IMG/VR virus record: IMGVR_UViG_3300049830_000142
Coordinates: 1-64,000 of that record
Direction: 5' to 3' (one strand)
Origin: a virus
Length of the DNA: 64,000 nucleotides
Shown here one piece after another: positions 8,082-44,706 of the stretch. The notes beneath the pieces are model-generated. The model made no database searches and was not told where the DNA came from. It saw only the letters and a program-made list of their open reading frames with translations. Within the stretch, counting starts at the first letter, position 1. Each line of letters starts with the position of its first letter. A program made the translations under genes and the position numbers.

Positions 8082-9422
8082 ATGACAGTCAACGAATTTT
8101 GTACTAGGTTAAACTTACAATCAGTTTTGGTGCATTTTGCCTGCGAAAGGCCTAAATCCACCCACAAAGTCCCTAGGTTAGGACAGCTAGCCTTAGCCCA
8201 AGATGACAATGCTTATAACGCCATTGATCTCTTCTTCTTTACACAGCCGCATAAGATAAAGAGAGATGATTATGAGTTTGGTAGGAAATGCTATAGCTAC
8301 TTTGTACAGGAGCATCCGGAGCTCTTTGATATACCGCCAAAGTATACTGAAACGGACGAACTTAGCTTTGCGCAGGACTATACCTTACATAGAAGTCAGG
8401 AGAGGTTCTGGCTAGCTTGTAGGACTGCTGGCAAGGAGATGCCAATGTATTACAACGGAAAGCCTATCATGATGGGTAAACTGCTGAATGAACTTGGTAT
8501 GCCTAAGTTTACACAGACTGAAATAGGTGTAGTCACTGCTAAGCACATCAGTGATCCTGTCTTCCGTCCACTGTTGTTAAATGAAGCTTACTCTAACAAG
8601 TTACTGTTACCTACGTTTTATGCGCCAGGTAAATTAGCTTCATTAGAGATCATTCTTAATCCTAAGGACATTGCTGACCGAAAGATGATCTACCGTAACC
8701 CCGAACCTGGCTGGTATGGTAGGTTAGGTGGAAGTGTAGTTGGAGATATACGAAACTTGTTTGAGATCGAAGGTTGTACTTGGTCTCAGAAAATTGTTGG
8801 TTGGTCTGATAAAGTATTGAATCTTCATCATTCCTTGAAGCCGCAGCAGTGTATCGAGATTTGGCAACATACTGAAGAGATAGCTTCTAACTGTAATCCA
8901 TTGTCGCTAATAAAAACACCTGATCTGCATAAAGAGATCAAAGGTACGCTAGGAAAGCTGACAATTAAAAAAATGAAGGAGTTAGAAGCGATTACCGGCA
9001 TTCCCTTAAAACAGGCCTGGATTAAGGAGAAGACATCTGAAGTCAATATCAGTGGTACAAAGTTTCTTAGGATCGATGATAGGTACTATTATACTATTGG
9101 AAAAAATACCTATGAGTTCACTAACTTTGCGATGGAACTCTCTGAAATCAAGAAAGTGGGTGATGTCTACTATCAATTCGGTAGCATCATAAAAGACGGT
9201 GAGATTGCAGCATTCAAGATAAAATGCAAAGCTTTCATTAGCCAGTACTCATTGCTAAAAGAAATGACTGACATTATGTTAGATGCAGGCCTGGGCACTC
9301 CTAGAGTTACTCCAAACTATAAGAACTATCTACCAAATGTGATAGAAGCCTTTAATCCGGAGAACGACCAAGAGATGCCCAAGCCCGCTGCAAAGGAACT
9401 TACTGTGCCTGACCTTGACTAA
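8082..9422 (+). CDS. hypothetical protein
   Basis: 446-aa open frame with no recognisable catalytic motif. Confidence 0.7.
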   Translation: MTVNEFCTRLNLQSVLVHFACERPKSTHKVPRLGQLALAQDDNAYNAIDLFFFTQPHKIKRDDYEFGRKCYSYFVQEHPELFDIPPKYTETDELSFAQDYTLHRSQERFWLACRTAGKEMPMYYNGKPIMMGKLLNELGMPKFTQTEIGVVTAKHISDPVFRPLLLNEAYSNKLLLPTFYAPGKLASLEIILNPKDIADRKMIYRNPEPGWYGRLGGSVVGDIRNLFEIEGCTWSQKIVGWSDKVLNLHHSLKPQQCIEIWQHTEEIASNCNPLSLIKTPDLHKEIKGTLGKLTIKKMKELEAITGIPLKQAWIKEKTSEVNISGTKFLRIDDRYYYTIGKNTYEFTNFAMELSEIKKVGDVYYQFGSIIKDGEIAAFKIKCKAFISQYSLLKEMTDIMLDAGLGTPRVTPNYKNYLPNVIEAFNPENDQEMPKPAAKELTVPDLD

Positions 9423-9432
9423 TCAGCACTCG

Positions 9433-9515
9433 TCAAGGGCCAAGTGTATTTTGTTTTAATTTGTGTTTGAGACGTTGGCCCCTGAAGGATACTGACTATC
9501 CTATCAAGGGCCAAG
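9433..9515. repeat. direct-inverted-direct repeat between convergent genes
   Basis: TCAAGGGCCAAG at 9433 and 9504; near-complement TTGGCCCCTGA at 9475; AGGATA/TATCCT extends the right-hand stem. Confidence 0.65.
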
Positions 9516-9521
9516 ACACAA

Positions 9522-11933
9522 TTATGCCAAAGCCTTAGCACGGGCTTCAGCGACGATACCGCGGATTTCTTTCAAAGTCTGGAAACGTTTGAGCTGGCCG
9601 TCAACGAAGACGACCTCCAGCTCACTCTTAGCTTCCTCACCCCAAGTCACCTTCTCTTGGACTTGCAGACGACCCTTGTCATCTTTGTAGACTTTGAGCA
9701 GACCGCAGTTGCTCTTCTTTGTGCCATCGTCGGTAACCGGATCTTTGAAGATGTCGACCGATTTACCGTTGATTTCCACATAAGTGGCTTTCATAGCCAG
9801 ACCGAATGTGTCGCGAGTGTTGCACTGATAGGTATATGAACCAATACCTAGCACAACTTGTGAAGCGAATCCTTTCGCAGCCAATCCTTCGCAGATAGCA
9901 CGGGCGCGCTCTAAGGTAATGCTATCCCCATAGATGACGCCGATGTGTGAGTCAAGAAGCTTGTAGCCTTTGTCTGTAGTAGTCCCTCCGAAGATTTCCC
10001 ACAAACATTGAACTACGCCCTTACGTTCAGCTTCGCTTGCACCATCCGGATTACCACAGATGATTAACTCAGGGTCACCGCTATCAGGGCGGATGACCAC
10101 TTTACCGTCACGAGCCAGCACGTCAGCTTTGAGAGCTAACAGGTATTCGGTGACGACTTTCCAAAGGTCCCAGGTATCACTGACGATTGAAACGATGCCC
10201 TTGGGATAGACTTTGGTGATGAGACGACGGAAGGTTTCAATTTCCGTGCCTTTACCACCGCTACACATAACGCTGTGTTCAGTAGCGGGAACAGAGCCGC
10301 CAACCAATTCCTTGGTCACGTCAGCTCCATAGTAGTATTCCAAACCAGTGATGGCAGGAATCGTATCAGTGCCAGTAAAGCTCAACAAGTGAGCCATGCC
10401 AGATCTTTGAGCGCTGTCCCACCCATCCATGCCTCGGAAGCTGAAGTCGTGCCCTTGCCATTGCACGAACTCCGGAGACATGCCAGTTTCCTTGGCATAT
10501 TTATCCAGGATCAGCCTGTATTGGAATGCGATGGTTGCGCTTGTGCTCATCTTCCAAACCTCTGCGCTAAACAAGCTTTCTACCCAGTTAGTCACCCAAT
10601 AGAACTCAGGCAACGTATTCAAGACAGTGAGGCAAGGAACACGCATAGGAACTAGCGTACCCTCTTTCACAGCCTTGATCTTGATAGGCAGATAACCGAG
10701 CTTGTGCAAATCTTCGACGTGCTTGTATGAAGCCAGGTCTCCAGTTGTGTTGGAGATGATTCGCTTATACTCGCCTAACACTTCAGCAAGAGGTTTCTTG
10801 AAGAAATGTTTGTTGAAGTAGTCAATGAGGACACGTTGGCAGAACATTTGCAAACCAAAGAACATCATACTATCCACTCCAGCTATACGACTCTTACGAG
10901 CAGTCCAGTTAGAATAGACGTATTCAGTTCCTTCCGGATACTGAAAGACGTGACCAACTTTATAGAAGTCAGTCAAGAGCAGTGGATTCGGTTCCTTTTT
11001 AACGAAATGCTCTTTCTTCGGAATGATGATGTCATTCGTCTTGTATTGCAGGTTACCGGCTTTTGCATCGAGAGCAGCGAAGACAGGAACGACAGTAACA
11101 ATCTTGCTACTATAGTTATTGCTGAAGCTATCGCTCGTGATGATGTTGTCGAAATACTTTTCCAACTCCATGAACCCTTTGGAAAAGATGCCGTGCGAAA
11201 CGATCAACGTCATCGTCTTGGGAGGCAAGGCCGAGCCGTCTTTGCAGTCAGCCGAGTATTCCTTGAGCTGTTGAGCAATGGCGGTGAAGGTTGCACCACC
11301 GTCACAAATGTCATCAATGATGACGCAGTTTCTTCCAGAACAGATAGCTGCCACCTCATTCGGAACTTTGAGCGTGATGGCACCAGTTGCAAGGTTACGA
11401 TCTTTCGAGCAATAGACGATCTCTTTGATGTTGGTATTCCAGCCAAGATAGCTCTTCACTTTCTTAGCAGCGCCAGCATCAGGCACTATCAGGACAGCGT
11501 CTTCCTGTTTATATGCCTGGACCAGTTTACTGTTGTTGTGAGCTTTGCTGTGCTTGATTAGAGCTGGAGCGACGTCGCTGTGTGGATCGAAAAGGTTGAC
11601 GACCTTGAAACCGCATTGATTGATTAGATCAGCAACGACTTCGAGGAAGACAGGACCTCCAGGGACCATTACACGGTCAGACCTGGCACCGAGCAAGTAA
11701 GGTATTACGAGCTCAGCTTTTTCGATAAACATATGATCGAGGGCGTTCGAGAGCTGAAGTAAGTTCATTACGTCTAAGCTAGAGCGTAAACGAGCAACAA
11801 CCCGCACACCGTCTTTCGCAGAGTCAACAGAAACCTCTTTCGTGTTGACCGTCAAATTTGGTTGGTTATCCGGAAACATTCCCAGTCCTACTCCAGACTG
11901 TGTATCCAGGTTTAGTGTTTGTAGTATTTTCAT
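9522..11933 (-). CDS. fusion of ribose-phosphate pyrophosphokinase-like and nicotinamide phosphoribosyltransferase-like domains (NARP1 Adps-Namat-like)
   Basis: N-half: IPYLLGARSDR, FDPHSDV, PDAGA, IIDDICDGGAT, VSHGIFS. C-half: LLLTDFYKVGH, HDFSFRG, PATEHSVM, VSDTWD, IRPDSGDP, YGDSIT. Confidence 0.9.
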   Translation of the reverse strand: MKILQTLNLDTQSGVGLGMFPDNQPNLTVNTKEVSVDSAKDGVRVVARLRSSLDVMNLLQLSNALDHMFIEKAELVIPYLLGARSDRVMVPGGPVFLEVVADLINQCGFKVVNLFDPHSDVAPALIKHSKAHNNSKLVQAYKQEDAVLIVPDAGAAKKVKSYLGWNTNIKEIVYCSKDRNLATGAITLKVPNEVAAICSGRNCVIIDDICDGGATFTAIAQQLKEYSADCKDGSALPPKTMTLIVSHGIFSKGFMELEKYFDNIITSDSFSNNYSSKIVTVVPVFAALDAKAGNLQYKTNDIIIPKKEHFVKKEPNPLLLTDFYKVGHVFQYPEGTEYVYSNWTARKSRIAGVDSMMFFGLQMFCQRVLIDYFNKHFFKKPLAEVLGEYKRIISNTTGDLASYKHVEDLHKLGYLPIKIKAVKEGTLVPMRVPCLTVLNTLPEFYWVTNWVESLFSAEVWKMSTSATIAFQYRLILDKYAKETGMSPEFVQWQGHDFSFRGMDGWDSAQRSGMAHLLSFTGTDTIPAITGLEYYYGADVTKELVGGSVPATEHSVMCSGGKGTEIETFRRLITKVYPKGIVSIVSDTWDLWKVVTEYLLALKADVLARDGKVVIRPDSGDPELIICGNPDGASEAERKGVVQCLWEIFGGTTTDKGYKLLDSHIGVIYGDSITLERARAICEGLAAKGFASQVVLGIGSYTYQCNTRDTFGLAMKATYVEINGKSVDIFKDPVTDDGTKKSNCGLLKVYKDDKGRLQVQEKVTWGEEAKSELEVVFVDGQLKRFQTLKEIRGIVAEARAKALA

Positions 11934-12505
11934 TTTATTGGTTTAACGTAAGGCTCCTGGTTTTCACGCCAGCAGATGTTTAGTTGAGCTAGTATTTTGT
12001 CGAGCGCAGGCGATAGGCCTAACGCAGGCTCGTGCGCGTTCATTAGTGATACAAGTGTACGCTTCTGCATACCTGTGCAGTACTCTCGCTCCATGATAGT
12101 GCTAAGCAGATCACGGATATCACTGATTGTGCCACAACAAGGAGCTAACTCGCATTCCTCGTCATACTGCAATCGATCGCTATCTTTCTTAAGACCAATG
12201 GCCTTAAACCACTCGTCTTGTGTTGCTACAACAGGATATGTGACTGCCATTTCTTTAGCCTCCTGATAGCTAAGAAAAAATTCGTCTGCTTTCCAGGCAT
12301 CCAAGAATGTCCCTCGGTCCATGTTGACAATACGCAACCTATAGTCAGTGGCATACAGTATGTCGCCTTTTTCTTTGTCTTTGCCTAGTATACAGAAGTA
12401 GCCTAGGATTTCATCTTCATGCACGTCTTTTACAACAGGCCTGGGGATGAAAACTTTGGTACCGATCGGTAACAAGTCATCCGCAATTTCACAAGTAATC
12501 TTCAT
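11930..12505 (-). CDS. hypothetical protein
   Basis: ORF with a 4-bp overlap to the NAMPT fusion start. Start set at MKITCE (12505). Confidence 0.6.
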   Translation of the reverse strand: MKITCEIADDLLPIGTKVFIPRPVVKDVHEDEILGYFCILGKDKEKGDILYATDYRLRIVNMDRGTFLDAWKADEFFLSYQEAKEMAVTYPVVATQDEWFKAIGLKKDSDRLQYDEECELAPCCGTISDIRDLLSTIMEREYCTGMQKRTLVSLMNAHEPALGLSPALDKILAQLNICWRENQEPYVKPIK

Positions 12506-12524
12506 AGCTAAAAAGTTGGTTAGT

Positions 12525-12785
12525 TTAACTGACAGACGAGCCCACAGCACCAATCTTCCTTTGCAGGTTGAATGGTGCTGTGGGGCTCTGATGGATTGAC
12601 ACTAAGCTTGCGCTCAGTCCATCTTTTGGGCTGTCGGAGGGTTGGTCTATAATGAGGATGACCAACCACGTTCCATTAAGCTTGCGCTCAACGAAAGGGG
12701 GATGTTGGGACAAAGTTCGGCCTTGTATCTGGCCAACCGTAGTAATGTATTGTGATATCACACAAGTAATGGGCGTCATTCCCAT
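12525..12785 (-). CDS. small hypothetical protein
   Basis: 86-aa ORF co-oriented with the operon; no motif. Confidence 0.35.
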   Translation of the reverse strand: MGMTPITCVISQYITTVGQIQGRTLSQHPPFVERKLNGTWLVILIIDQPSDSPKDGLSASLVSIHQSPTAPFNLQRKIGAVGSSVS

Positions 12786-12842
12786 ACCAGCTCCGAAGAG
12801 GTCCGACGATGACCACCACCACCATAGCTCAACGTATCGAAG

Positions 12843-13052
12843 TCACCCAACATAAAGTTTTACCTCAGTGAAATTAGTTACCAGCCAACTGATGAGCCTG
12901 TACATTGACGCCTTCCGCTCATCAGCAAACCTTAAGTCGAGCGTCTGACTACAAGGTCTAGTAAATTGGTTTAGGGGGTGTCGATTCGAGGTTAGGCCGC
13001 TAAGCCTTGTCTCCTCTAACAGTATTATTTTTGGCGTATACTGCTCGTCCAA
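12843..13052 (-). CDS. small hypothetical protein
   Basis: 69-aa ORF with a TTG start; no motif. Confidence 0.3.
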   Translation of the reverse strand: MDEQYTPKIILLEETRLSGLTSNRHPLNQFTRPCSQTLDLRFADERKASMYRLISWLVTNFTEVKLYVG

Positions 13053-13480
13053 AACCTAGGATAAAGCCTTGAATTGTGGTACACCCTAGAACACCTGAAG
13101 CGCTGCCAGCACTTTTGATGTTCTACTTAAGACTCTCCACAAAGACCTTTTCAGGCAACCGGACCCCTTCCTAGGGGGTGTCCGAGGAAGAAACGACAAC
13201 CTCAAGCATCAGCTGGATGAAGAGGTAGCGCCACCATTGGGGGCTCATGTCCCATGGATTTTGTGATCGAACCTTTCCAGCATGGAGGCAACATACGGTC
13301 ACCTTTGGCCAAAACATCGTGGTTCAATACATTATACCCTAATAGGGGCTATTCTGGCCTAGGGGGTGCTAAAAGATACGGATAGGGTTTATGCTATCCA
13401 AGTTATTATACCATACAAACTAAGTTATAGCTTAGGGGGAGGGGGCCCGTACTAGCTTACATGCTTATTTAGGGTATGAT
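12973..13480. promoter_or_regulatory. divergent control region with repeated AGGGGGTG motifs and C-tract..GGTAT(A/G)AT elements
   Basis: AGGGGGTG at 12973, 13173 and 13361; ATTATACC (minus-strand GGTATAAT) at 13331 and 13405; GCTTAGGGGGAGGGGG at 13430; GGTATGAT at 13473. Confidence 0.65.
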
Positions 13481-13544
13481 AAATTGAGAGAGACTCTATC
13501 AATGGAGTCCCCGTAAACTGCAACAAATAACTACAATAAACAAC

Positions 13545-13916
13545 ATGATACATCATACATTCGAAATTAGCCTATTCTGGCTTACCGTCATCATCCTCGC
13601 CGCCCTAGGGGTGGGGGTGTTACTACATCAACGGTATTACAATCGTAAGCTGCCTTGGGACCGCTGGACAACCTTGACTTTCTTCACCGACCCGAACCTG
13701 GGTTTGGAGGGGTGGGTTGACGAGGGTGGAAATGTGGATGATTCTTGGTTTACTACCGAGTTCTCCAACAAGCCGATCTACGCTGGCCGGATACCTCATG
13801 GCACCAAGATCAGGGTTGTCATCAAAGGCATTTCCGGTATGGGTGGTTACGTCTCATATGATATGGATGAGCTCGTGGCTATCGCACGGAAAAACCAGCT
13901 ACCTGTCAAGGCATGA
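13545..13916 (+). CDS. membrane-anchored hypothetical protein
   Basis: N-terminal hydrophobic helix LFWLTVIILAALGVGVLL; first gene of an accessory island. Confidence 0.6.
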   Translation: MIHHTFEISLFWLTVIILAALGVGVLLHQRYYNRKLPWDRWTTLTFFTDPNLGLEGWVDEGGNVDDSWFTTEFSNKPIYAGRIPHGTKIRVVIKGISGMGGYVSYDMDELVAIARKNQLPVKA

Positions 13917-36927: not shown

Positions 36928-37003
36928 ATTCTAATAGCTAAAAAAAAGGAAAACGGGTAAGGTTTTCCTAGTTAGGTTCTCGGCATTGGGAAGTGCAGAG
37001 AGC

Positions 37004-37471: not shown

Positions 37472-37843
37472 TCATTTCATCAATTGTTTGATTAGTTGTA
37501 GATCGTCTAGGCTAATAGACAATCTTAGTTGTTCAGTGCGAGAGTTGTTGTGATAATAAGTAGCGCAGTAATCTTGGACAACCATGCATTCTTTGATAGT
37601 GTTGCATTGCTTCAGCTTAGTTAAGAAGCGTACCATAGCTAGTCCTCGACCGTCAGGTATCTCAAAGGCCCAGGAGGCAGCTTTAGGATCCATTATGAAC
37701 GCGTTTAGTCTCAAGAAGTCATACAGGATGCTCCAGCTATACAAGAAGCTCTGAGAAGCTTTGGTGACAGCATGGATAGTCCTAAGCTTCATCTCAGGAC
37801 TAAGATTCTGGATGTACTCAATGTTGAAGGTTTCGTTGTTCAT
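37472..37843 (-). CDS. hypothetical protein, paralog of 37818..38270
   Basis: FNIEYIQNLSPEMKLRTIHAVTKAS..RFLTKLKQ. Confidence 0.6.
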   Translation of the reverse strand: MNNETFNIEYIQNLSPEMKLRTIHAVTKASQSFLYSWSILYDFLRLNAFIMDPKAASWAFEIPDGRGLAMVRFLTKLKQCNTIKECMVVQDYCATYYHNNSRTEQLRLSISLDDLQLIKQLMK

Positions 37844-38270
37844 CGGTTAGGATTATGGTTTGAAGACGTTGCAGATCTATCTCTGAAGGAAAGATGTATG
37901 TGAGCTGGGCTTTCTCCCATTCCTGGTCCTTAGAGACGGCTTTGAGATCCTTAGCTCTCTTTAGTTGTCGGAGCTTGATTAGGAAGCGATTGCCTTGTAA
38001 TGAGTCGTCTAATGTTATTCCATTAGGATCGTCATAGAAGTCCTGAGCATCTCTACTATTGAAATCATCCTCATCATCAAAAGAGTAGGTACGGATGTCA
38101 GAGTCAGGAGTGGAAAGAGCTCTGATAAGGTTTAGACATGAGGAATAGGCAGTATGGGTATTGATGTAACTGTCTATGGAACTCAGTTTGGTTAGGGTGC
38201 TGATAAGTCTCATTCTTTCATCAAAGGAAAGGGACTTGATAGAGGGGATATTGAAGAATGGTTTTGGCAT
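37818..38270 (-). CDS. hypothetical protein, paralog of 37472..37843
   Basis: FNIPSIKSLSFDERMRLISTLTKLS..RFLIKLRQ. Confidence 0.6.
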   Translation of the reverse strand: MPKPFFNIPSIKSLSFDERMRLISTLTKLSSIDSYINTHTAYSSCLNLIRALSTPDSDIRTYSFDDEDDFNSRDAQDFYDDPNGITLDDSLQGNRFLIKLRQLKRAKDLKAVSKDQEWEKAQLTYIFPSEIDLQRLQTIILTDEQRNLQH

Positions 38271-38367
38271 GAGATTAGTACTGGGAAGGGGAATGTGGTA
38301 ATAAAGGTAAAGACGAATCCTCTACTACTAATATCTAAAAAATTGGACTTATACGACTCATCACCTC

Positions 38368-38549
38368 TCCCAACGACTGGGTAAGCAACCATTGCTGGTC
38401 GCCTACCCTTTATCGTCGGGATACTTGGTTAGACTGAGGAACCGTAGCAGGAGATGGTGGACAGAGGTTTTGACACCCCCGCCCACCAATCCCTTCTGCA
38501 ACGCAGAACTCAAGGCTTGCGCCGAGCTCTGCTAGGAGGTCTAACCAAG
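38368..38549 (-). ncRNA. candidate structured RNA (four-way junction plus long hairpin, two GCAA tetraloops)
   Basis: Manually found stems: 11-bp CTTGGTTAGAC/GTCTAACCAAG closing three internal hairpins, and a 13-bp stem with GCAA loop nested in a 9-bp stem. The G-U pairs work only on the minus strand. Confidence 0.55.
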
Positions 38550-38573
38550 GACTGTGAGGACTCCCCGGTAAAT

Positions 38574-38729
38574 TTACTTCGCAGAAGGAGTTACCGTATG
38601 TGCCGTATGGGTCTTGATGATCCCAGGCTGCGCGTCGTTTTGGGGGTTCAGATTGCCCGGATTACGAATAACCCAGCCACCGGCGAACCCACACAGGAGC
38701 ATTATTGAGGCGATAACCGTGAATTTCAT
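38574..38729 (-). CDS. 51-aa signal-peptide/TM microprotein (not in the ORF track)
   Basis: MKFTVIASIMLLCGFAGGWVIRNPG...SAK*, downstream of the minus-strand GGTATAAT element at 38819. Confidence 0.5.
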   Translation of the reverse strand: MKFTVIASIMLLCGFAGGWVIRNPGNLNPQNDAQPGIIKTHTAHTVTPSAK

Positions 38730-38818: not shown

Positions 38819-38931
38819 ATTATACCGTGTATTAGCCTAGTTCTGGCCCGGGGGTGTCTAAACCACATATATGTACGCGATAGGCGATATACCCCTCCCC
38901 CTAAGCTTATAATCGGAAATCAAGGTATAAT
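38819..38931. promoter_or_regulatory. divergent pair of C-tract..GGTATAAT promoter-like elements
   Basis: Minus: GACACCCCC (38850-38858)-N23-GGTATAAT (38819-38826). Plus: CCCCTCCCCCTAAGC (38892-38906)-N17-GGTATAAT (38924-38931). Confidence 0.65.
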
Positions 38932-39127
38932 GAATTGAGAAGGGCTTTTATAGCCTAGAAAATTAAAGTATGTCAAATACCCCTCCCCCTGCAAAGGTGG
39001 CCTCGTCCGATCCTTTGTTTGGTCTACGCCCCGACGAAATTAACATCTGCATGATAGACCCTAAGTTACGGGAGAAGGTCTTTCATGCTCTAAACAATCC
39101 CCCTCCCGTAGAAAGCAAAAAAACGAC

Positions 39128-42642: not shown

Positions 42643-42667
42643 GGGAGGCTTCGGCCTCTCTTTTTTT
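42643..42667 (+). terminator. intrinsic terminator with a UUCG loop
   Basis: GGGAGGC-TTCG-GCCTCTC followed by T7. Confidence 0.85.
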
Positions 42668-44488: not shown

Positions 44489-44530
44489 CCCCTCCCCCTC
44501 CTCTAATTTCGGGTTATTCCATGGTATTAT
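44489..44530 (+). promoter_or_regulatory. C-tract..GGTATTAT promoter-like element
   Basis: CCCCTCCCCCT (44489-44499), then GGTATTATGAAATGAG at 44523. Confidence 0.55.
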
Positions 44531-44577
44531 GAAATGAGGGTGTAATAGCCTTCGCTGAAAAGCACTGAAGAAACGTG

Positions 44578-44613
44578 GGTGAGCTAGGATCATAACCTGG
44601 CTCACCTTTCTCT
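44578..44613 (+). terminator. terminator-like hairpin in the leader of the third accessory island
   Basis: GGTGAGCTAGG/CCTGGCTCACC 11-bp stem followed by TTTCTCT. Confidence 0.5.
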
Positions 44614-44706
44614 ATTGTGGAGAACTTCTTAAGCTAAGTAAGCCATATACACTACCTCGGGTGTATATGATAATAGTCGTTTGAAAGCGGCAAGAGGTCT
44701 TCAGTT

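Follow-up and report, generated by a model that had tools for sequence, protein, structure and literature searches.

Within the stretch of DNA analysed here (64,000 nt, referred to as the window), a densely folded RNA element lies on the minus strand in the gap between two genes of the same direction, one encoding a membrane microprotein and the other opening a run of small leftward genes. The earlier note had placed it between a microprotein gene and the operon beginning at 38270, and this position is borne out, with the stop codon of the 51-aa gene 24 nt before the first helix of the element (P1) and the start of the 150-aa gene 98 nt after its end. The features of the locus, in the direction of leftward transcription, are the following:

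38947..38976, minus strand: sigma-70-like promoter, TTGACA-18 nt-TATAAA as read from the sequence, about 390 nt upstream of the RNA
38849..38864, minus strand: leader segment GGUUUAGACACCCCCG, with 15 of 16 positions complementary to the hairpin-B apex (5' arm plus loop, 38481-38466)
38574..38729, minus strand: gene for a 51-aa one-helix membrane microprotein, with a positive coding score and a homolog, P0003
38368..38549, minus strand: the whole structured RNA element, 182 nt; minimum free energy (MFE) -109.4 kcal/mol, z = -11.27
38424..38549, minus strand: P1 domain, hairpins A and B enclosed by an 11-bp helix (38549-38539 with 38434-38424); z = -8.25 alone
38503..38532, minus strand: hairpin A, 12 bp interrupted by a UU bulge and capped by a GCAA tetraloop (38520-38517); z = -3.8
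38444..38502, minus strand: hairpin B, about 22 bp in three segments with four G-U pairs and an apical loop (38475-38470); z = -6.1
38368..38421, minus strand: hairpin C, two stems (10 bp outer, 13 bp inner) on either side of an AAA/A internal loop, capped by a GCAA tetraloop (38395-38392); z = -8.57
38333..38344, minus strand: conserved block AAUUUUUUAGAU (a U-run), 23 nt after hairpin C; it reads NFLD in translation both here and in the P0002 extension described below
37818..38270, minus strand: 150-aa gene, the first in the run of small leftward genes, with one homolog at 66% identity

The window corresponds to positions 1-64,000 of the 134,588-bp IMG/VR record IMGVR_UViG_3300049830_000142, for which CheckV gives a completeness of 62%. 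The record carries genes for split and fused multisubunit RNA polymerase subunits, a class II ribonucleotide reductase, a NAMPT fusion protein, an SNF2 helicase and a gpA-type terminase, and it is therefore assigned to an uncultivated jumbo phage. The nearest isolates are Salmonella phage Arash and Vibrio phages D69, D181 and D148, with only about 30% identity in the RNA polymerase, and the lineage is almost unsampled, with one genome and two short contigs. Sigma-70-type promoters (TTGACA/TATAAT-type consensus) and ordinary hairpin-plus-U terminators were found in the record, as were terminator-TTTTTTAGCT-promoter units, for example at 42661 on the plus strand and at 36947 on the minus strand. 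A Shine-Dalgarno-like 4-mer was present upstream of only 12 of the 96 long ORFs in the whole record. The combination of few Shine-Dalgarno sites with consensus promoters is a hint about the host, which apparently makes no use of such sites.

The earlier note had left the fold to be compared with shuffled sequence. In RNAfold, the minimum of -109.4 kcal/mol compares with -60.0 +/- 4.4 kcal/mol in 200 dinucleotide-preserving shuffles, none of which folded as well (0/200), giving the z value of -11.27 listed above. In a 180-nt sliding scan over both strands of the whole 134,588-bp record, the element was the top minus-strand outlier. The sub-domains are each significant singly (z from -3.8 to -8.6), while the flanks are at the chance level, with z = -0.68 for the 281 nt upstream and z = -0.64 for the 97 nt downstream, and the same fold was obtained when the element was embedded in transcripts of 571 nt and 616 nt. 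The element is thus a genuine minus-strand RNA structure, sharply bounded and far beyond chance.

In the minimum-energy fold (RNA position i equals window coordinate 38550 - i), the P1 domain and hairpin C are joined by a two-base linker, and the P1 domain itself contains two pyrimidine-rich single-stranded joints, 38538-38533 (CUCCUA) and 38443-38435 (GGUUCCUCA). All helices named in the earlier note were found in their places on the minus strand, including the 11-bp P1, the hairpin GGC-GCAA-GCC and the long G-U-rich hairpin with arms GGUGGGCGGGGG / CCUCUGUCCACC, and the two GNRA tetraloops that it reported are the GCAA loops capping hairpins A and C. Its description of the last hairpin was right as to a 13-bp stem with GCAA inside an outer stem, although this outer stem comprises 10 bp rather than 9 bp. 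The core that it drew, with P2 and a UUCUGC-GUU-GCAGAA hairpin, turned out to be a true alternative rather than the predicted minimum, in which hairpins A and B are formed instead. In this alternative, a four-way fold at -105.6 kcal/mol, the basal GCAGA/UCUGC helix of hairpin A gives way to pairing with the base of hairpin B. Four GCAGA/UCUGC-type segments can thus form two mutually exclusive pairings, 3.8 kcal/mol apart, and in the ensemble the pair probability is 0.93 for the minimum-energy pairing against 0.003 (about 0.3%) for the alternative. The helices are long and nearly perfect, and few unpaired positions are available that could make a binding pocket.

Several observations bear on whether the structure belongs to RNA, to DNA or to a coding sequence. 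The plus strand reaches only -77.3 kcal/mol (z = -5.7), which is 32 kcal/mol poorer than the minus strand, and folds of the single-stranded DNA, with z = -6.2 and -3.6, are much weaker than that of the minus-strand RNA at z = -11.3. On the minus strand, nine of the 70 pairs are G-U; these account for all of the non-Watson-Crick pairs, and A-C 1x1 mismatches are absent. In a decaying DNA palindrome, transitions would give G-U and A-C in equal numbers, so that nine of one kind and none of the other has a binomial probability of 0.002. The asymmetry between G-U and A-C, together with the difference in z between the strands, speaks for selection at the RNA level, in agreement with the earlier proposal that strand-specific G-U pairs point to selection on RNA structure. 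Nor does the region resemble protein-coding sequence. Coding scores, calculated as codon-usage log-odds trained on the long genes of the same phage, range from -0.19 to -0.42 in the six frames across the element, compared with 0.33 +/- 0.12 for the true frames of real genes; by this measure the element is non-coding in all six frames.

The 51-aa microprotein upstream consists of an N-terminal hydrophobic helix and a polar tail. Its homolog on a 682-nt ENA contig, P0003, shares 72% identity with it by BLASTP (86% of the query) and 66% in a MAFFT alignment, and the changes are conservative. With this homolog and a positive coding score, the 51-aa ORF is probably a real gene. No toxin family in Pfam or NCBIfam matched it. 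The annotation of the record leaves out the 51-aa ORF at 38574-38729 (minus strand) and calls instead an 84-aa antisense ORF at 38454-38708 (plus strand), for which no homolog was found among 5.8 billion proteins; a call of this kind over a conserved microprotein looks like an annotation error. On the other side of the element, neither the 150-aa protein nor the products of the neighbouring small genes belong to any Pfam, PHROG or NCBIfam family, an ESM Atlas search of the neighbouring proteins was uninformative, and the AlphaFold model of the 150-aa protein was unusable, with a pLDDT of 51. A protein of 1,314 aa, P0005, contains 23 tandem matches to positions 118-156 of the P0001/P0002 profile, that is, to the GNRFLIKLRQLKRAKDLK region at about residues 79-117 of the 150-aa protein. 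The GNRFLIKLRQLKRAKDLK segment is therefore considered to be a repeat module.

Judging from its sequence, the TTGACA-18 nt-TATAAA promoter is likely to give rise to the leftward transcript containing the RNA, from a putative start site. A 14-nt direct repeat, AGGGGGAGGGGTAT (minus strand), is present at 38889-38902 and 38977-38990, 88 nt apart, and exactly twice in the 134-kb record; the promoter directly follows one of the copies. Both copies fall within the divergent promoter region that precedes the RNA-bearing operon, which makes the repeat a possible operator. That it might be a genome-wide promoter motif was ruled out, as the only two copies are both at this locus.

For the RNA itself, a sigma-70 promoter and an intrinsic terminator of its own were sought, and neither was found: there is no sigma-70-like promoter directly upstream and no canonical terminator directly downstream. 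In an intrinsic terminator the U-tract follows a GC-rich hairpin by 0-3 nt, and in the canonical terminators elsewhere in this genome the U-run is adjacent to the hairpin; here a run of six U starts 23 nt past hairpin C with no hairpin between. The flanking genes share the direction of the RNA (minus strand), and neither a promoter nor a terminator lies between them. Co-transcription with the microprotein gene is therefore likelier than a stand-alone small-RNA gene, and the RNA would most simply be internal to an early transcript of about 2 kb, whose end would be the terminator-promoter unit near 36947. Pairing of 38720-38707 with 38367-38353, a long-range helix that would enclose the microprotein ORF, was considered and set aside as not compelling (P = 0.04), and a T7-promoter-like 10-mer on the plus strand (38351-38360) was attributed to chance, with only two loose copies in the genome.

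The match between the leader segment GGUUUAGACACCCCCG and the apex of hairpin B has P = 0.001-0.002 in 1,000 shuffles, whether the leader is shuffled or the entire upstream part of the transcript. By itself the duplex has -29.1 kcal/mol, and it is absent from the MFE structure. Formed within one molecule, this pairing lies about 23 kcal/mol above the minimum and is thus not the ground state. The match is an unexplained lead that was spotted after the fact, and it could correspond to either a hok-like fold-back or a pairing in trans after processing.

Only two relatives were found in the databases, P0002 and P0003, and both were compared as protein sequences. P0002, the single relative of the 150-aa protein, is encoded on a 1,982-nt Logan contig, and a profile search of 1.84 billion protein representatives returned only P0001, P0002 and two long repetitive proteins. 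As called, the P0002 gene has a 39-residue N-terminal extension that starts with MVAYPV. These residues correspond to AUG GUU GCU UAC CCA GU, which is the last base of the GCAA loop of hairpin C plus the 3' arm of the inner stem. Ten residues beyond MVAYPV, NFLD is found in both the phage and P0002, and the residues between differ. From the ATG of MVAYPV to the true start codon of the 150-aa gene there are 122 nt in this phage and 117 nt in the relative, which means that the frame is not kept. With MVAYPV and NFLD shared and the intervening residues different, the arm of hairpin C and the U-run have been kept while the spacer diverged. Read in this way, the pattern gives a partial indication of conserved non-coding blocks in a diverged spacer, coming from one relative, one arm of one helix and amino-acid resolution. 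The 3' strand of the outer stem of hairpin C is altered in the relative (PVPVD against PVVGR), which is a point against the processing and stability reading put forward below. The string of the conserved U-run block, TTTTTTAG(C/A)T, occurs elsewhere in the genome after true terminators and before TTGACA promoters.

The earlier note had recognised no Rfam family in the element, and the covariance search agrees: Rfam 15 gave no family at gathering score anywhere in the 64-kb window, and at E <= 10 only two microRNA precursor models overlapped the element (E = 5-8, 12-17 bits, far under their thresholds). There was no Rfam match to GOLLD or ROOL, and ARAGORN found no tRNA or tmRNA gene in the 64 kb. 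A single-sequence covariance model recovered only the element itself in its own genome, with no second copy, and gave no match in the closest isolates searched, Salmonella phage Arash and Vibrio phages D69 and D181. Searches for related loci in viral, metagenome and genome collections, starting from the 150-aa protein, its two-sequence alignment, the RNA polymerase or the microprotein alignment, yielded only L002 and L009. Both were rejected, L002 being a weak, unrelated viral locus and L009 a spurious membrane-helix match in a Dormibacteraeota MAG; the covariance model found nothing in the record of L002 and noise only in the L002 and L009 loci. Against 50,697 phage records, blastn with the locus and with the RNA alone gave nothing, or chance matches of 19-22 nt at E = 8, and tblastn of P0002 against phage records gave nothing. 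Exact and degenerate patterns of hairpin C had no matches in viral, metagenome and genome collections. The element is in no catalogued family and stands as an orphan among the broad class of structured phage intergenic RNAs. The reading of the earlier note as a structured non-coding RNA is upheld; of the three identities that it put forward (cis-regulatory leader, ribozyme or small RNA), nothing supports a ribozyme. A hammerhead-like UGAUGAG after hairpin C was dismissed, with the rest of the ribozyme core missing and no match in Rfam, and nothing in the analysis supports an identity as a riboswitch.

Other stretches of the record also fold strongly. A second multi-hairpin region at 12500-12720 (minus strand; MFE -81.3 kcal/mol, z = -7.2) contains two hairpins of the form GAGC-GCAA-GCUU; its end coincides with a U-run and with the start of gene 11930-12553. 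The stretch 12553-13545 at this place is poor in ORFs, with about 1 kb devoid of any ORF of 70 aa or more. At 44511-44706 (plus strand), a closed multi-hairpin element (MFE -70.9 kcal/mol, z = -6.0) abuts the next start codon, and at 9230-9500 (minus strand), a hairpin of about 45 bp (MFE -102.3 kcal/mol, z = -8.0) closely follows the 3' end of the NAMPT-fusion gene 9522-11933 and runs antisense to the last part of ORF 8082-9422. A covariance model search of the genome showed that these three stretches are not homologous to the element at 38368-38549. Outside the window, positions 110926-111195 of the record hold a 16-bp perfect palindromic hairpin (CUAGCCAGCUGCUCC... / ...GGAGCAGCUGGCUAG), with an equal fold on both strands. 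Hairpins of the GCGCAAGC type were considered as a repeat family and rejected, since only a handful exist in the genome.

The structure described above is well supported, and what can be said of its function is inferred only. The long helices, the few positions that could form a pocket, the lack of its own promoter or terminator, and the three further folds at gene boundaries favour a general role in RNA handling over four bespoke RNAs. Our tentative preference, held with rather less than even confidence and arising from analysis of the fold and its context, is that the element may be a self-contained RNA module, co-transcribed in the early leftward operon, that acts in cis as a processing/stability element. 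According to this proposal: the module would be transcribed within the early-type leftward transcript, together with its neighbours; its long, near-perfect helices, of a type that is cut by the double-strand-specific RNase III or that resists exonucleases, could be cleaved; a cut would part the microprotein message from the downstream message; the helices would shield the resulting mRNA ends, with a presumed stabilising effect; and cleavage would also release a compact RNA with its ends sealed by P1.

Phage RNase III sites, such as R0.3-R1.3 of T7, take the form of a helix at least two turns long with one internal loop. Those between the T7 early genes (R0.3, R0.5, R1, R1.1 and R1.3) separate messages and protect their ends, and a 5' stabiliser formed by the RNase III site of SP82 is known from Bacillus phages. 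Such sites are characterised by a near-continuous duplex of at least about 20 bp, in which one internal loop is common, and a duplex of this kind is present in hairpin C (10 + 13 bp) and hairpin B (about 22 bp). Like the T7 and SP82 sites, the element is located between co-directional, presumably early genes downstream of a predicted host-type promoter; it has hairpins roughly two helical turns long with one internal loop and would leave mRNA ends protected by hairpins. It has no sequence similarity to those sites, and cleavage here is putative. In addition, unlike the single hairpins of T7, it joins a 23-bp hairpin to a three-way junction closed by P1 and carries two GNRA tetraloops, a more elaborate design that speaks against a processing element.

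As this architecture is richer than that of the T7 single hairpins, a released stable RNA is a serious rival, even if we regard it as somewhat unlikely. A trans-acting ncRNA, whether freed from the early transcript or expressed from a phage promoter of unrecognised type, would bind a protein or another RNA; one candidate target is the leader of the operon that it belongs to, contacted by the hairpin-B apex. The element forms a compact multi-helix domain with both ends sealed by P1 and with two GNRA tetraloops, the fold is extremely stable, the GC content of 54-56% exceeds the 42% of the genome, hairpin C (loop and 3' arm) is kept in one relative, and the 15/16 complementarity with the leader has a P of about 0.001-0.002, all of which would suit such an RNA. 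The absence of a promoter or terminator of its own is less easily accommodated, as are the almost perfect helices with few conserved-looking unpaired nucleotides, the single copy with no detectable homolog in distant relatives, and a leader pairing that is post hoc and costs about 23 kcal/mol in cis. The element shares with GOLLD and ROOL that it is phage-borne, GC-enriched, tetraloop-rich and very stable, and these traits, as grouped here, include being absent from Rfam or of unknown function; at 182 nt, it is much smaller than either. A regulatory leader of the downstream operon (riboswitch-like, a protein operator or an attenuator), switching between the two folds of the P1 domain, could draw on two exclusive pairings within 3.8 kcal/mol, a position 98 nt upstream of the 150-aa gene and a conserved U-run after the element. 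We find it quite unlikely, as there is no expression platform, the U-run being 23 nt off the nearest hairpin and the start codon region not sequestered; the MFE fold dominates by 0.93 against 0.003; no Rfam riboswitch matches; and the junctions are short.

Another possibility is that the element forms the structured 3' domain of a type I toxin-like mRNA of the hok family, in which the 51-aa microprotein would be the toxin and the 3' fold plus a fold-back would keep the message inert. The microprotein is indeed small and conserved with one membrane helix, its gene and the RNA form a GC-rich block in an AT-richer genome, and the candidate long-range pairing between leader and 3' domain recalls hok/sok, where a small hydrophobic peptide is likewise encoded in a highly structured message. 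However, the likeness does not extend to the other parts of hok/sok: no antisense or antitoxin RNA gene was found, nor any plus-strand promoter-like site in or beside the locus; the peptide is in no known toxin family of Pfam or NCBIfam; the leader segment is 120-135 nt upstream of the start codon, so that the pairing would fall off the translation start and not over it; and the fold-back is not in the MFE structure. This explanation appears distinctly improbable to us. Finally, there might be no RNA function at all, the inverted repeats being a chance cluster or else a DNA-level element such as an origin, a site of recombination or a palindrome in decay. Shuffled sequences are indeed outdone by both strands and by the folds of single-stranded DNA, but the nine G-U pairs with no A-C mismatch contradict symmetric DNA pairing, the DNA z values of -6.2 and -3.6 fall far short of the -11.3 of the RNA, and one helix arm has been kept in a diverged relative; we consider this the most improbable of the explanations.

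A bolder reading can also be proposed, although we think it unlikely: the element may represent a new family of phage RNA, in which a compact module of about 180 nt is cut from the first early transcript and its exposed hairpin-B apex then pairs with the leader of the operon that it came from, or else the module folds back on that leader in cis to gate translation of a membrane-active microprotein. If true, either version would amount to an RNA timer, complete in itself, for the genes that a jumbo phage expresses first. Little is understood of what happens at the RNA level in jumbo phages that encode multisubunit RNA polymerases of their own, and with three more folded modules in the same genome, this phage would be a good subject for studying RNA-based gene organisation in a host that apparently makes no use of Shine-Dalgarno sites. 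A bounded, very stable module within the first early transcript would offer a handle on how early messages are cut, protected and timed.
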